DNA of 64,000 nt from Yuukianura sp. NJ FZ-2021 (GCA_046563655.1 CM102283.1:1612001-1676000), one strand, 5' to 3'. Positions 11,700 through 27,412 are shown, counted from the first letter of the stretch. The notes: generated from the sequence alone by a model not told the origin. Made by a program: numbers and translations.

Positions 11700-14438
11700 A
11701 TGTTTATTTTGCATTTACTACTGTTTTGGTTGGCGTTCGACAAAACGCTTGGTAAGTTTTATAATTACTTTCTCCAATGTTAAGAAGTGAAACATTATCA
11801 TTGCAAATTAAAAACATGTAAATTTTTGAGAAAAAAAAATGACGTTTTAAACAAACCTTCATTTTTTTTTGAAAACCTCAAATTTAAGAAAAGAATTTTC
11901 CTTTTTTCATTTTCCACAAACTGAAAAGCAAGGACGTTTATTCTTCGTTTTTTTTTGCTAACATGGTGAATCGTTCAGCCTTTCGTTAGCCTTACCTTGT
12001 CAATCTTTTGCTCATTTGATGTAAAATTATTCTCGGTCATATTAAACAAGAGATTTTTATAGTTCTAATATGTAGGTATTGAATTTTTGTTTCTAAATTT
12101 TAGTTCCATAAGCCAAAATCAGTTGTTTTTTTTTAAACGAAAAACTTACGGTAGTACATAACTCAACAAGCATGTTGTTTGGTTATTTATTGCTATTTTG
12201 GTTGCAATACTACGAAGCATTTGGTAGTTCATGTTCAATCCGAATTTTTCAAAGATTCACATTTTTTCAAAATTTAAAATACACAGAACATCATATCTAA
12301 ATTTTTTCCTTTTTTCAGGCCGCTGCCCAACTATGAAAGATCCTTGTCTCTTAGGCGGGTTTCAGTACACGGGAATGTGCAACTGTGCAACCGACCCGCC
12401 GCAACACTGCACCCGCCCGGAAGAAAAATGCAACGCATGCGTATTCCAGGGTTCCGTCTGCTCAAACGAACCTGGTGGGCTGAAATGCTGCCCAATTCTG
12501 TCAGGTCAGGCGTACTGCAACTCTCGCACGAGAAAGTGTGAAGCGATTGGCTACTGCACTGGAGCTAACTGTCCATTCGATGACCTCAGTCCACAAGAAA
12601 TCAAAAGTGCAGTCAACGTCATTCAGTCTTCCAACATCTTCCTGCCAGGTCAAATCCAGTTTCCAGTCATCCGTACTTTGGAGCCATCAAAATCTGATTG
12701 GATCGCTGGAAAACCCATTCAACGAATAGCATATGTCGCCGTACTTGACATTCTGACGTACAATTTGTTTGAAATATTGGTTGACCTTACACGCCAAAAA
12801 ATTGTTTCCAAAACTGCGCTTCCAGGTCAACTTCCACCAATCACCACCGCGGATGCTCAAGCTGCTTTGAAATTGGCCAGGGCTGATCCTCGCGTACAGT
12901 TTGCCTATCAGCGTCGTGGACTAAAACTTGAGCAAGGTTGGTTTACATATCACCCGTCTGGAGCAACCGGATTGGGCATTAACCAACGTTGGCTTCGTTT
13001 AGTAGCTTATCACACAGATTCAAAAGCCGGTTGGCGTTGGCGCGCAATTGCAGGATTTCAATTGACCGTAGATTTACAGAATATGAAAGTCATTGAAGTT
13101 TTAGACACTGAAAAGCTGCCGTTAACTCCAACACCGCAAATTGTGGACACGCCAATAACTCCGCCCCTAAAACCACTCAAAATTAGCCAACCAGAAGGCA
13201 GTTCAATTGAGGTCAAAGGTCAACAAATTAGGTGGTACAAATGGAAATTCATGTACTCCATGGACCCTGTTCACGGACTACAGCTTTTTCACGTTCGTTA
13301 CCAAGCTGACTGTGAAGAACGGCTCGTTTTGTACAAGATTTCAATTTCTGAAATGTTGGTTCCTTATGGAGCTGAATCTGCACAGTGGCGGTGGCGTCGA
13401 TTTTTGGACGCAGGAGAGTACGGGCTTGGATTTATGTCGCAATCGCAGATTCTGGGAAAAAACGTACCGGAGAATTCAGTTTTGCTGAATTGTACGCAGT
13501 ACGAGGCGGCCAGCGGCGTACCGAGTCCGACAAATCCTAAAGTACTTGAAGGCTGCATTGCTGCGTATGAGCGTGACAGTCAAATGCTGGTCAATTACGT
13601 CGATATTGAAACCGGAAAAGAGTTTAGGCGATCCGGTCGTCAGATGGTGCTCAGTACTTTGTCGGTTATTGACAACTACGCTTATGTTTTTGAATACATT
13701 TTTCATATGGACGGAGTTTTGCAAATCAATGTAAGATTGACAGGAATTGTACTGATACGGGGAGTGTCTACAACAAAAAATGATCCAAGCTGTTTAGAGT
13801 CCTGCACCACACTGATTGATGACTACACCATTGCACCCATTCACCAACACTTTTTCAACTACAGAATTGATCTAGATGTGGATGGACCACAAAACTATGT
13901 TTTGCAATCTGATGTCAGCCTTGATCCCCGTGGACCAGAAAATCCTGATGGAGGTGCATTTTCTGCCAAAAAGAAAATTGTGGAAACGGAGTCGGCGCAT
14001 GATGCTAACATCAAGAAGAGTCGTACATGGCATGTTGTCAACTCCAACAGTCGAAATCGGTTTAACTCTCCGCGCGGTTACGTCATAAAACCGGATACGG
14101 TGGCATACCACTTTGTCAATCGATACAATCCTTACATTTCGCGGACAGAATTTGTGCGACATGCCTTTTGGGCCACGGTGTACAAAGATGAGGAGCAGAG
14201 TGCTGCTGGTACTTTTCCGAGAAGTGGAATTCCATATCAAGGTCTTCCAGAGTACATCCAAAACAAGGAATCACTGGAGAATGAAGATGTCGTTGTGTGG
14301 CATACGTTTGGTCTGACGCATGTCACGAGACCCGAGGAGTGGCCAATCATGAACGTCCATAATGCTGGATTCTCATTGGTTCCTTTTAACTTCATGTCGC
14401 AGAACCCCGAAGTACCGCAGAAGAAGCATTGCTCATAG
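11700..14438 (+). CDS. Secreted copper amine oxidase-family protein with Cys-rich N-terminal module, copy 1 (intact, ~723 aa)
   Basis: Exon 1 11700-11751 (MFILHLLLFWLAFDKTL-G, GTAAGT donor, phase 1); exon 2 12319-14438. Catalytic-base motif FLDAGEYG (Asp 13407-09), cofactor Tyr in IDNYAY (13677-79), Cu ligands HQH (13842-50) and GLTHVTRPEEWPIM (His 14319-21). Confidence 0.93.
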
Positions 14439-14898
14439 TGTCATTTTGTATACAAACTGTTTTTGACTTTGTTCATAATTTGGGCTATTTTTGGATTTCT
14501 GTTATTGAAAATTTTTGTTAGATGGAATACATAAGGCACCGTCAGGAAAATCTCCGCGTATTGTAACAACAAAAACCGTTTTTTGAAAAGATTATTCCTG
14601 TTAGTTTGTAATGAAAAAAGTCTGAAGGAGACGAGGACAAGAAACATAAAGAACGAGGAAAGAAACGTAAAAAAAAGGAGCACAGCTTACCAAACCTAAA
14701 CTGTATTTTTAACCTCAATTTTGACGTAGAACACAATATAACGTGTTATTCATCCATTTAAGTCAAATTGTCTTTCAAGTGAGGAATAGCAAAGGATATA
14801 TAATTCAACCGGAAAAAAACTCAGTTTAAAGCCGTTCTTCAACCAACGAAATAATTATTTCAATTTTTTCGAATTTACATAACCAAACTAAATTCAAA

Positions 14899-24591: not shown

Positions 24592-24943
24592 TGTTCTTTC
24601 TTTCTCAAAAATTATCACTCTAATTGTTATTTCATTCAAATTCTTATAATAACCATCTAATTTAATAAAAATGGACAGTTCTTCAAAATTTTAGTTTTTT
24701 CTAACTCAATTAAATTAAATTTCACCGAACACGTTCTGTTTAGTGTAAGCTTTCCAATTTTTGGGGATAAAATTTCAACGTTCAACGTCCTGAAATGAGG
24801 TTGAATTTTAATTGCCATTCTTTTAGTTCATTGAATTTAAATATTTCCCAAATCGAGGAAAAGACAAATTGAGATATTAGTTTTTTTAACTGTTGAAGTC
24901 CCGTTTTGGATTTATTATATGGTTTAAATAGAAAATTTTGAAA

Positions 24944-27412
24944 ATGTTTTTCTTGTACGTTATCTTACTTTGTTTAGAACTGTGCAAAACGTTGGGTAAG
25001 TTACCGTTACGTACAGAAATTTCTCGTAATACTAATGAAATTCAGTTTTTGTTGTGTTTCCATACTCCGTAATGTATGCAAGAAAATGATTGGAAAAAGC
25101 ATTAGTTTTCTGTAACTTTGTCTGAAAGTATCAAAACAATTAACTTGGAAGTGAAACTAATTTTTTCAATACTAACAACAGTTCAGAGTTTTGAAAACAA
25201 TTTCTTTCAGGTTGCTGACCAATTATTACAACCAAAATATGAATAATATGTATAATAAGAGTTTGGCGATGCTTTTTTTTTTGAAATCTTCGCAGCCCTC
25301 TGCCCAACCATGAAAGATCCTTGTCTGCTGGGCGGGTTTCAGTACACGGGAATGTGCAACTGTGCAACCAACCCACCTCAACACTGCACCCGCCCGGAAG
25401 AAAAATGCAACGCATGCGTATTCCAGGGTTCTGTTTGCTCAAACGAACCTGGTGGGCCGAAATGCTGCCCAATTCTGTCTGGTCAGGCGTACTGCAACTC
25501 TCGCACTAGAAAGTGTGAAGCAATTGGCTACTGCACTGGAGCTAACTGTCCATTCGATGACCTCAGTCCACAAGAAATCAAAAGTGCAGTCAACGTCATT
25601 CAGTCCGCAAACATCTTCCTGCCAGGGCAAATCCAGTTTCCAGTTATCCGAACTTTGGAGCCATCAAAATCCGATTGGATCGCTGGAAAACCCAATCAGC
25701 GAATAGCCTATGTCGCCGTCTTTGACATTCTGACGAACACTTTGTTCGAAGTTCTTGTCGACCTTAAGCAGCAAACAATTTTGAAGAAAACTCCGCTTCC
25801 AGGTCAGCTGCCTCTGGCCATCTCAGAGGAGCAAAGCACTGCGACGAATGTAGCCAAGGCTGACCCAAGAGTTCAGCTAGCATTTAAGCGCCGCGGTTTG
25901 AAAATTGAACTTGGTTGGTTTGCTTGGCGCGGTTTTGGAGCTGTCGGGTCACCGATTGGTCAGCGATGGTTACGCGGAACTCCGTTCCACAAAGATCTTA
26001 AGTTTGGTTGGAGCAGGCGTACAGTCGAGGGGATTCAGGTTATAGTCGATGTACAGAAATTGGCAGTTGTAGAATTTTTTGACACCGAAACTCCTCCGCT
26101 CCCACCCACTCCGCATATTCTTGACACGCCGATAGCTCCGCCCATAAAACCGCTCAAAATCAGACAACCAGAAGGCACTTCTATAGAGGTGAAAGGTCAA
26201 CAAATTAGTTGGTACAAATGGAAGTTTATGTACTCCATGGACCCTATCCACGGACTACAGCTTTTTCACGTTCGCTACCAAGCTGACTGCGAAGAGCGAC
26301 TTGTTTTGTACAAAATTTCAATTTCGGAGATCATCACAGCCTACGGTGCCCAAGGTGAGCAGTGGCGTTGGCGCAGATACCTCGACGCTGGAGAGTTTGG
26401 GCTGGGCATTTTAGCTCAAGGGCAGGTCATCAAAAAAGATGTACCTGAAAATACGGTTTTGCTTAACTGCACGTTGTACGACTCATTCAACGGCATACCA
26501 ACTCCAATGAATCCGAAAGTTCTTGAAGGATGCATCGCTGCGTATGAGCGTGACAGTCAAATGTTGCACAACTACGTCGATATTGGAACTGGAAAAGAAT
26601 TTAGACGTCGCGGTCGCAAGCTTGTGCTTAGCTTTTACTCCCAGGTTGGCAACTACGGCTTTACTTTTGAATACATTTTTCATATGGACGGAGTTCTGCA
26701 AATTAACGTAAGGTTAACAGGAATTTTGCAGCCACGAGGCGTGTTTAAAACAACAAATGATCCAAGTTGTTTAGAGTCGTGCACCACATCAGTTGACGAC
26801 TACTTAACTGGTCCCATCCATCAACACTTTTTCAACTATAGAATTGATCTAGATGTGGATGGACCACAAAACTATGTTTTGCAATCTGATGTCAGCCTTG
26901 ATCCCCGTGGACCAGAAAATCCTGATGGCGGAGCATTTTCCGTCAAAAAAAAATTTTTGAAAACTGAGTCGGCGCATGATGCTGATATTAAGAAGAGTCG
27001 TACGTGGCATGTTGTCAACGCCAACAGTCGGAATCGGTTTAACTCTCCGCGGGGTTACGTCGTACAACCCACCTCGATCGCATACCACTTTGTCAACCGT
27101 GACAATCCTTACATTTCGCGGACAGAATTTGTGCGACATGCCTTTTGGGCCACGGTGTACAAAGATGAGGAACAGGGTGCTGCTGGTACTTTTCCGAGAA
27201 GTGGAATTCCATATCAAGGTCTTCCAGAGTACATCCAAAACAAGGAATCACTGGAGAATGAAGATGTCGTTGTGTGGCATACGTTTGGTCTGACGCATGT
27301 CACGAGACCCGAAGAGTGGCCAATCATGAACGTCCATAATGCTGGATTCTCATTGGTTCCTTTCAATTTCATGTCGCAGAACCCCGAAGTACCACAGGAA
27401 AAACGTTGCTAA
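24944..27412 (+). CDS. Copper amine oxidase copy 6 (intact, ~722 aa)
   Basis: Exon 1 24944-24995 (MFFLYVILLCLELCKTL-A), exon 2 25296-27412. Motifs RRYLDAGEFG, VGNYGF (Tyr 26654-56), HQH and GLTH. Confidence 0.93.

Follow-up and report, generated by a model that had tools for sequence, protein, structure and literature searches.

The 64,000-nt stretch of Yuukianura sp. NJ FZ-2021 DNA analyzed here (GCA_046563655.1 CM102283.1:1612001-1676000; hereafter the window, from whose start all positions are counted) carries on its plus strand, between positions 11700 and 27412, an array of copper amine oxidase (CAO) genes that probably goes back to an old transfer of a bacterial gene into arthropods, which was domesticated and then expanded in tandem in a springtail-like genome. 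We put the probability of this explanation at roughly 0.8. Its sequences are bacterial in affinity, its gene structure is eukaryotic, its composition resembles that of the host, and its intact copies are under purifying selection. It consists of six head-to-tail units, namely four intact two-exon genes (c1, c3, c5, and c6), one frameshifted unit (c2), and one N-terminal fragment (c4), whose coordinates are given in Table 1. The preliminary description of this DNA had counted six head-to-tail paralogues; the number, location, and single strand of the units hold, but only four of them are intact.

Relationship to bacterial copper amine oxidases

In a phmmer search against PDB, the closest structures are those of Escherichia coli (260 bits) and Arthrobacter (254 bits), followed by those of pea (189 bits) and yeast (184 bits), while the mammalian AOC structures reach only 105 to 116 bits. 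The preliminary description had judged the array more similar to bacterial than to vertebrate enzymes on account of several motifs, all of which are present, and the bit scores point in the same direction. The animal AOC1-4 and invertebrate CAO-like proteins nevertheless belong to the same PF01179 family and are extracellular or secreted, as the array proteins are predicted to be.

A word-based search with the catalytic domain, which reports best matches only, gave 532 matches, of which the best 120 were listed. Among these 120, three metagenome proteins share 52 to 56% identity with the window catalytic query, bacterial proteins do not exceed 45% (those named belong to Oligoflexia, Deltaproteobacteria, Acidobacteriota, Myxococcota, and others), and the sole named eukaryote is the sciarid fly Pseudolycoriella hygida, whose protein, encoded on a 64-Mb contig, aligns with 53% of the query at 39% identity. 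Folsomia and Orchesella, though represented in the database, contribute no protein to the 120 best matches listed. When species-representative prokaryote genomes were scanned, 10 loci were obtained, all of them in bacterial metagenome-assembled genomes (MAGs), the best being Oligoflexia/Bdellovibrionales loci with 41 to 42% identity; overall, the uncharacterized homologues from Oligoflexia/Bdellovibrionales-type MAGs are 41 to 45% identical to the array proteins.

Of the 499 loci from a metagenome scan, 80 were retained; among these, identity rises above 50% in L011 and L012 only, and the locus that follows them reaches 36%. L011 has the same 17-codon first exon as the array genes, a phase-1 intron at the same position, and the Cys-rich module described below. 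In L012 (L012:1015-3003), the signal peptide is fused straight to the N2 domain, intron and Cys-rich module both being absent, and the flanks are without open reading frames (ORFs). The module was probably lost in L012, since this locus branches off later than the fly, in which the core of the module is present. The two Pseudolycoriella hygida models, P0032 and P0302, both lack the approximately 150 residues bearing the cofactor Tyr and the His-X-His motif, so that either the models would be misannotated or the genes degraded. The P0302 model looks chimeric, with the C-terminal portion of one copy leading into a second, adjacent copy; therefore the fly, too, appears to have tandem copies.

The phylogenetic placement was reconstructed in three trees. 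A FastTree analysis of 177 rows, comprising the fetched matches of at least 480 amino acids and five window sequences (one match of 450 amino acids was dropped), places nine arthropod-type rows in one clade (support 100), sister to 23 Oligoflexia-type rows (99) and within a 41-row clade (100). In a quick IQ-TREE search under LG+C20 PMSF with 54 rows, which were chosen after the first tree had been seen, the arthropod clade (100) lies inside a 25-row Oligoflexia-type clade (100). A careful LG+G4 analysis of 33 rows recovers the arthropod clade with 100/100 support within clades of 15 rows (100/100) and 19 rows (100/100), the latter including a Pseudobdellovibrionaceae MAG; here the fungi group with Actinomycetota-type rows, and the plants are outermost. 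In all three trees the arthropod clade contains the window copies, the three metagenome proteins, and one sciarid fly protein. The path from the window to the fly amounts to 1.57 substitutions per site, and a divergence this large within the clade indicates that the clade is old. When the arthropod clade, the plants, and the fungi were held together in the 33-row LG+G4 data set, the topology was rejected by the approximately unbiased (AU) test (delta lnL 273, p-AU 1e-111). The eukaryotic rows outside the clade are plants and fungi; animal AOC-type sequences are not in the trees, and for these the PDB bit scores stand in. Within this scope, the catalytic-domain phylogeny that the preliminary description had proposed as a check does not nest the array in a broad metazoan clade, and the claim of horizontal acquisition from bacteria is borne out by the position of the clade inside Oligoflexia/Bdellovibrionales-type bacteria.

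Gene architecture and composition

Repeat analysis detected the first 300 nt of the unit six times and the catalytic region five times, all on the plus strand and at a spacing of 2.7 to 4.6 kb, and a tblastn search with c1 returned the same six places, with no further match anywhere in the window. Among the stop-to-stop ORFs that the plus strand contains from 12.2 to 27.4 kb, four have 704 to 758 codons; a pair lying in different frames (15070-15975 and 15941-17263) belongs to c2, and a 217-codon stub (21080-21733) belongs to c4.

Each intact unit begins with a hydrophobic exon 1 of 17 codons, followed by a phase-1 GT-AG intron of 94 to 300 nt and by a 2.1-kb exon 2, which in c1, c3, c5, and c6 is a single uninterrupted ORF coding for a module with 14 cysteines and a complete copper amine oxidase. 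The spliced models, predicted from the sequence, are uninterrupted proteins of 718 to 723 residues, and the residue at the exon junction (G, S, or A) would suit cleavage by signal peptidase. The main exon had previously been described as intronless, which is correct for exon 2 of every intact copy but overlooks the signal-peptide exon and the spliceosomal intron that precede every full unit. Furthermore, in both c1 and c5 a second, related first exon (at 11700 and 21871, respectively) precedes exon 1 by about 450 nt, and the entire region ahead of c1, 11447-12320, shares 80% identity with 21626-22473. The extra exon before c1 may be either an alternative first exon of this gene or an orphan from a lost copy.

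Compared with c5, the c2 unit has gained 5 nt at 15166-15171 and lost 8 nt at about 15939, and one of its module cysteines has become Arg. Because of these indels and the lost cysteine, c2 is probably a young pseudogene. The c4 fragment is joined directly to the upstream region of c5, which is homologous to the region upstream of c1, and this junction agrees with a contig joint found in two runs (X1 and X2), at which position 12850 leads back to 11447. Directly upstream of c4, the stretch 20900-21066 is G+C rich and contains short repeated words of the gggcg type; it may mark the event that removed the first exon of c4. An AATAAA signal occurs downstream of c2 and c5 only. In the spacer between c1 and c2, a stretch of 156 nt (14619-14776) is skipped by the contigs of all four runs examined, the run of a second study included, and represents an indel difference between assembly and reads.

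The composition of the array is that of its surroundings. The G+C content at third codon positions (GC3) is 0.44 to 0.47 in the array versus 0.42 to 0.53 in four host exons assigned by Pfam, the relative synonymous codon usage is correlated with r 0.65, and the array spacers, with a G+C content of 0.31 to 0.38, are AT rich like the other noncoding DNA of the window. The ORF density in the window flanks is 0.15, versus 0.82 to 0.99 at the eight bacterial homologue loci checked. The 64 kb contain 0 N, and the array is contiguous in the assembly with animal genes on both sides.

Enzyme fold, active site, and added cysteines

PF01179 is matched in five of the seven ORF translations submitted (five units), with E values of 4e-101 to 5e-108 over positions 2 to 406 of the 407 profile positions, whereas the N-terminal part of c2 and c4 give only weak N2/N3 domain matches. 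The N2 and N3 matches are weak overall, N3 being above the cutoff in c1 and c2 and N2 below it. The motifs that the preliminary description took to define topaquinone-type copper amine oxidases (EC 1.4.3.21/22) are present as well. The structure model of c1 (mean pLDDT 86.5) has its best fold match in AGAO of Arthrobacter globiformis, with a target TM-score of 0.93 and a root mean square deviation of 2.3 Å over 630 columns, and a whole-protein atlas search returned generic amine oxidase clusters only. Both AGAO and the E. coli enzyme TynA/ECAO, which are bacterial phenylethylamine/tyramine oxidases, have the same N2-N3-catalytic domain order and the same fold as the array proteins.

All four intact copies retain the cofactor Tyr, the Asn that precedes it, three His as copper ligands, the Asp of the catalytic base, and the equivalent of Tyr369, the conserved residue that in this family hydrogen-bonds the cofactor (E. 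coli residue numbers are counted from the phmmer/PDB alignment). His occupies the copper-ligand columns of the HQH and THV motifs in 70/70 and 71/71 aligned residues, and no variation is seen at the equivalents of Asp383 and Tyr369 (71/71). The same three His, catalytic Asp, and Asn-Tyr cofactor site are kept by the bacterial CAOs, from which the array differs in its location in an animal genome, its intron, its eukaryote-type signal exon, five clade-specific cysteines, and the Ala or Gly after the cofactor Tyr. The equivalent of the E. coli gate residue Tyr381 is F, P, Y, and Y across the four intact copies, and the motif VPYG is changed to TAYG in c5 and c6.

The N-terminal module occupies the place of the extra N-terminal domain of ECAO but is unrelated to it in sequence. 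Its 14 cysteines are essentially absent from the aligned bacterial sequences, being found in at most 2 of the 60 rows at any position, and five cysteines in the body of the protein (331, 391, 412, 491, and 704 of the c1 exon 2 protein) are present in 7 or 8 of the 8 clade members versus 0/60 bacterial rows. No Pfam family matches the module at an E value of 1 or below, and the atlas gave no usable match. In a phmmer search of 1.84 billion representatives, 0 matches were obtained at an E value of 0.001 or below, a search which also missed the module of P0005 and hence has low sensitivity for a short Cys-rich query. The module is not confidently folded in the AlphaFold model (pLDDT below 50 for residues 1 to 63); its spacing, C-x6-C-x8-CC-x8-C-x6-C, presumably resembles that of knottins. 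A single N-x-T sequon (NCT, position 390) is found in c1. The hydrophobic exon, the phase-1 intron, and a 14-Cys module unseen in the aligned bacteria agree with the earlier proposal that the enzyme had gained eukaryotic secretion and a Cys-rich module.

Selection and probable gene conversion

Pairwise dN/dS among the intact copies is 0.21 to 0.28 and is lowest in the catalytic half (0.10 to 0.22), so that the expansion postulated in the preliminary description is seen as a tandem array whose intact copies are under purifying selection. Synonymous divergence is unevenly distributed along the genes, with dS of 0.09 to 0.25 in the Cys-rich module and in the final 200 codons and of 0.7 to 1.4 in N2/N3 and the first part of the catalytic domain, except in the young pair c5/c6 (0.15 to 0.34). 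This pattern is as expected if gene conversion homogenizes the ends of the genes while the middle stays diverged. Because the diverged middle holds the substrate-channel residues, the copies may well differ in substrate range.

Proposed history and alternative explanations

The succession of events that we propose would have started with the entry of a bacterial CAO gene, from a donor related to Oligoflexia/Bdellovibrionales-type bacteria, into an arthropod germ line. The gene would then have been rebuilt as an animal secretory gene through the acquisition of a signal-peptide exon, a phase-1 intron, the 14-Cys module, and extra body cysteines, and would have multiplied next to an SLC19 gene, where four copies stay intact under purifying selection, one decays, and one was truncated. 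The products are predicted to be secreted homodimers that oxidize primary amines with O2 to aldehyde, NH3, and H2O2, and their substrate ranges would diverge through the middle of the gene while gene conversion keeps both ends alike.

Several observations weigh against this history. The AU test does not reject a topology that keeps the nine closest bacterial rows together (p 0.35), and therefore the arthropod clade is either sister to or nested in the closest bacterial group. The absence of the gene from other arthropods has been weakly tested, given that the profile search with the eukaryote-like set, which covered annotated proteins and added fungi and plants but no further animal, also missed P0032 although this fly protein was in the query. 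The identity of the host comes from a single peroxidasin exon, and the linkage of the array to SLC19 comes from the assembly, with none of the public contigs (longest piece 604 nt) bridging it. Finally, the Thr of the cofactor site is replaced by V in c1, L in c3, and Q in c5 and c6, and the acidic residue that follows the cofactor Tyr is replaced by A in c1 and by G in c3, c5, and c6, a loss through which the enzyme activity may be altered.

Of the alternatives, the one that fares best accepts the bacterial origin and holds that either the springtail lineage or the sciarid fly received the rebuilt gene second hand, from another arthropod, which we regard as possible but doubtful. The patchy distribution of the clade, with no named arthropod besides the fly among the 120 matches listed, would then reflect transfer among soil arthropods. 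The fly protein has Cys331 and Cys391 (8/8 clade rows versus 0/60 bacterial rows) and a 6-Cys core of the module in common with the clade, which indicates that the gene was rebuilt once, before the springtail-like and the sciarid lineages held it. There is also a precedent, in that the terpene synthases of Sciaridae are nearest those of mites and P450s thought to come from springtails or mites are mentioned in the available text of the same report (PMC11665903). On the other hand, vertical descent from early hexapods with many losses would yield the same tree, and the clade is old.

It is rather unlikely that the copies are no longer classical amine oxidases, their cofactor site having drifted toward a changed chemistry or a noncatalytic role, for instance that of a binding protein on an oxidase fold. 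Of the 70 aligned residues at the position following the cofactor Tyr, 64 are D or E, and the acidic residue is missing only in the four intact copies and in P0005, which have A or G there; one position further on, two of the four intact copies have F, not Y. The intact copies thus depart from the consensus of the cofactor motif, with Asn-Tyr retained, and since Ala or Gly replaces the acidic residue, enzyme activity is only predicted. In a yeast enzyme, mutation of the equivalent residue reportedly leaves cofactor formation and turnover in place, with inactivation following. The precursor Tyr being present, formation of the cofactor is still possible in the array proteins. That the Tyr and Asn of the cofactor site, all three copper-ligand His, the catalytic Asp, and the equivalent of Tyr369 are retained speaks against a loss of the classical activity, and so does the low dN/dS of the catalytic half, which is expected of a working active site.

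Vertical inheritance of an ancient eukaryotic or metazoan CAO, kept in few arthropods and lost elsewhere, is very improbable. A 2025 CuAO survey that covered 79 species of animals mentions Coelenterata, Mollusca, Leptocardii, and vertebrates (PMC12058724), and such canonical CAOs in cnidarians, molluscs, amphioxus, and vertebrates suggest that animals did inherit one; the words "insect" and "arthropod" do not occur in the main text of that survey, whose species tables are in the supplements. However, the 260 bits obtained with the E. coli enzyme stand against at most 116 with mammalian enzymes, and in all trees the plants and fungi are far from the array, their union with it being rejected as described above. 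As for bacterial contamination assembled into an animal scaffold, the least credible explanation, it could draw on the lack of an independent contig bridging SLC19 and the array but is excluded by the spliceosomal introns and signal-peptide exons, the pseudogene and the truncated copy, the AT-rich spacers, host-like GC3, and absence of N in the window, a contig of the second study that runs from the c1 stop to c2 exon 2 and thereby covers the spacer, and the fact that the closest bacterial protein among the 120 matches listed is merely 45% identical.

Genomic surroundings

The array lies about 700 bp behind the end of a gene for a reduced folate carrier of the SLC19 type, whose earlier identification is confirmed by PF01770 (Table 1). 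The RASSF gene that the preliminary description had placed downstream corresponds to an exon with a Ras-association (RA) match below the Pfam cutoff, and this part of the claim is accordingly uncertain. Exons of ordinary host genes lie upstream of SLC19, and further downstream are RhoGEF/PH exons and a peroxidasin gene. A peroxidase exon of 473 residues is 69% identical to the protein of Orchesella cincta and 66% identical to that of Folsomia candida and reaches at most 59% with insects and other named arthropods (among the 120 matches listed for it), so that the host gene, judged by one exon, most likely has its affinity with Collembola or a close entognathan relative distant from Orchesella and Folsomia.

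TABLE 1 Predicted features of the CAO array and of the neighboring genes in the window
Feature	Position	Strand	Details
AMP-binding and Yippee/Mis18 exons, ordinary host genes upstream of SLC19	4757-6481	-	Pfam; AMP-binding E 3e-12, Yippee/Mis18 E 5e-08
SLC19-type reduced folate carrier, last exons	8861..11013 (about 8861-9580, 10818-11013)	+	PF01770 E 1.1e-44 and 6.6e-07 (profile 356-412 of 412)
Extra signal-peptide-type exon before c1	11700..11751	+	17 codons + 1 nt, donor g/gtaagt; in frame with c1 exon 2 over a 567-nt intron
c1, intact, 723 aa	12172..14438	+	Exon 1 12172-12223, 95-nt phase-1 GT-AG intron, exon 2 12319-14438
Cys-rich N-terminal module of c1, 86 aa, 14 Cys	12321..12578	+	Equivalents in c2 to c6
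c2, probable pseudogene	14899..17263	+	Exon 1 14899-14950, exon 2 from about 15153; catalytic ORF 15941-17263 still open
c3, intact, 718 aa	17580..19953	+	Exon 1 17580-17631, 217-nt intron, exon 2 17849-19953
c4, truncated	21067..21733	+	Residues 7-187 only (Cys-rich module and N2 domain), no first exon
c5, intact, 723 aa	21871..24591	+	Extra exon 21871-21922, exon 1 22326-22377, 94-nt intron, exon 2 22472-24591
c6, intact, 722 aa	24944..27412	+	Exon 1 24944-24995, 300-nt intron, exon 2 25296-27412
Exon with weak RA match	29176..29562	-	RA E 0.014, below Pfam cutoff
RhoGEF/PH exons	33409-35896	-	RhoGEF E 0.0017, PH E 7e-06
Peroxidasin (Ig domains and animal haem peroxidase)	60016-63998	-	An_peroxidase E 1e-125

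Within an intron of the SLC19 gene, the segment 10084-10725 is a high-copy repeat, with a summed contig depth of up to 125,950 versus tens to hundreds in its flanks. Contig ends and internal joints are numerous there, and the repeat probably belongs to a transposable element or miniature inverted-repeat transposable element family. Between 38001 and 50000, in a region without long ORFs, the GC skew of adjacent 2-kb bins swings from +0.23 to -0.15, +0.20, +0.13, and -0.16, which may reflect strand-biased repeats. Peroxidasin, an H2O2-using enzyme, is encoded 33 kb downstream of the oxidase array, which is predicted to produce H2O2; we found nothing beyond this proximity that would tie the two functionally.

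Implications

CAOs are unrecorded for arthropods in the literature searched. There we found no report in which a copper amine oxidase of springtails, Sciaridae, or insects is linked to gene transfer, although the supplementary catalogues of springtail transfers might list one. Enzymes acquired by springtails and Sciaridae, among them microbial-type terpene synthases, enzymes of beta-lactam synthesis, and carbohydrate-degrading enzymes, are likewise described, in the available text of the reports, as foreign genes with introns, host-like composition, and a patchy distribution that includes Sciaridae (PMC11665903, PMC5490193, PMC9460274, PMC5200902), but the array is unlike them in having gained a new N-terminal module and in forming a series of six units. 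Soil hexapods are a lineage in which gene uptake has been recognized before, and to their domesticated bacterial genes the array is a clean addition, one in which several steps of domestication are visible together, namely the signal exon, the intron at a position shared with L011, the new disulfide cysteines, the fused module, and the tandem expansion with probable conversion of the ends and a diverged middle.

As a tentative extension, one bacterial-to-arthropod transfer might have created a new family of secreted oxidases, with a Cys-rich module and a noncanonical cofactor site, which would then have moved between springtail-like hexapods, sciarid gnats, and the owners of the metagenome contigs. 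Such movement between arthropods would match the route proposed for the sciarid terpene synthases, as far as the available text of that report goes (PMC11665903), and the occurrence of the rebuilt form in both the array and a sciarid fly makes it possible to examine, independently and for a second time, whether genes have passed between soil microarthropods and fungus gnats as proposed. In the same extension, the array might serve as an H2O2-generating panel with diverged substrate channels, for amine detoxification, microbial defence, or matrix cross-linking.

The altered consensus of the cofactor site provides a natural variant for the enzymology of topaquinone formation. For the organisms themselves, the clade would give hexapods an extracellular route from primary amines to aldehyde, ammonia, and H2O2; candidate substrates such as tyramine, phenylethylamine, and diamines are widespread in fungi and in decaying matter.

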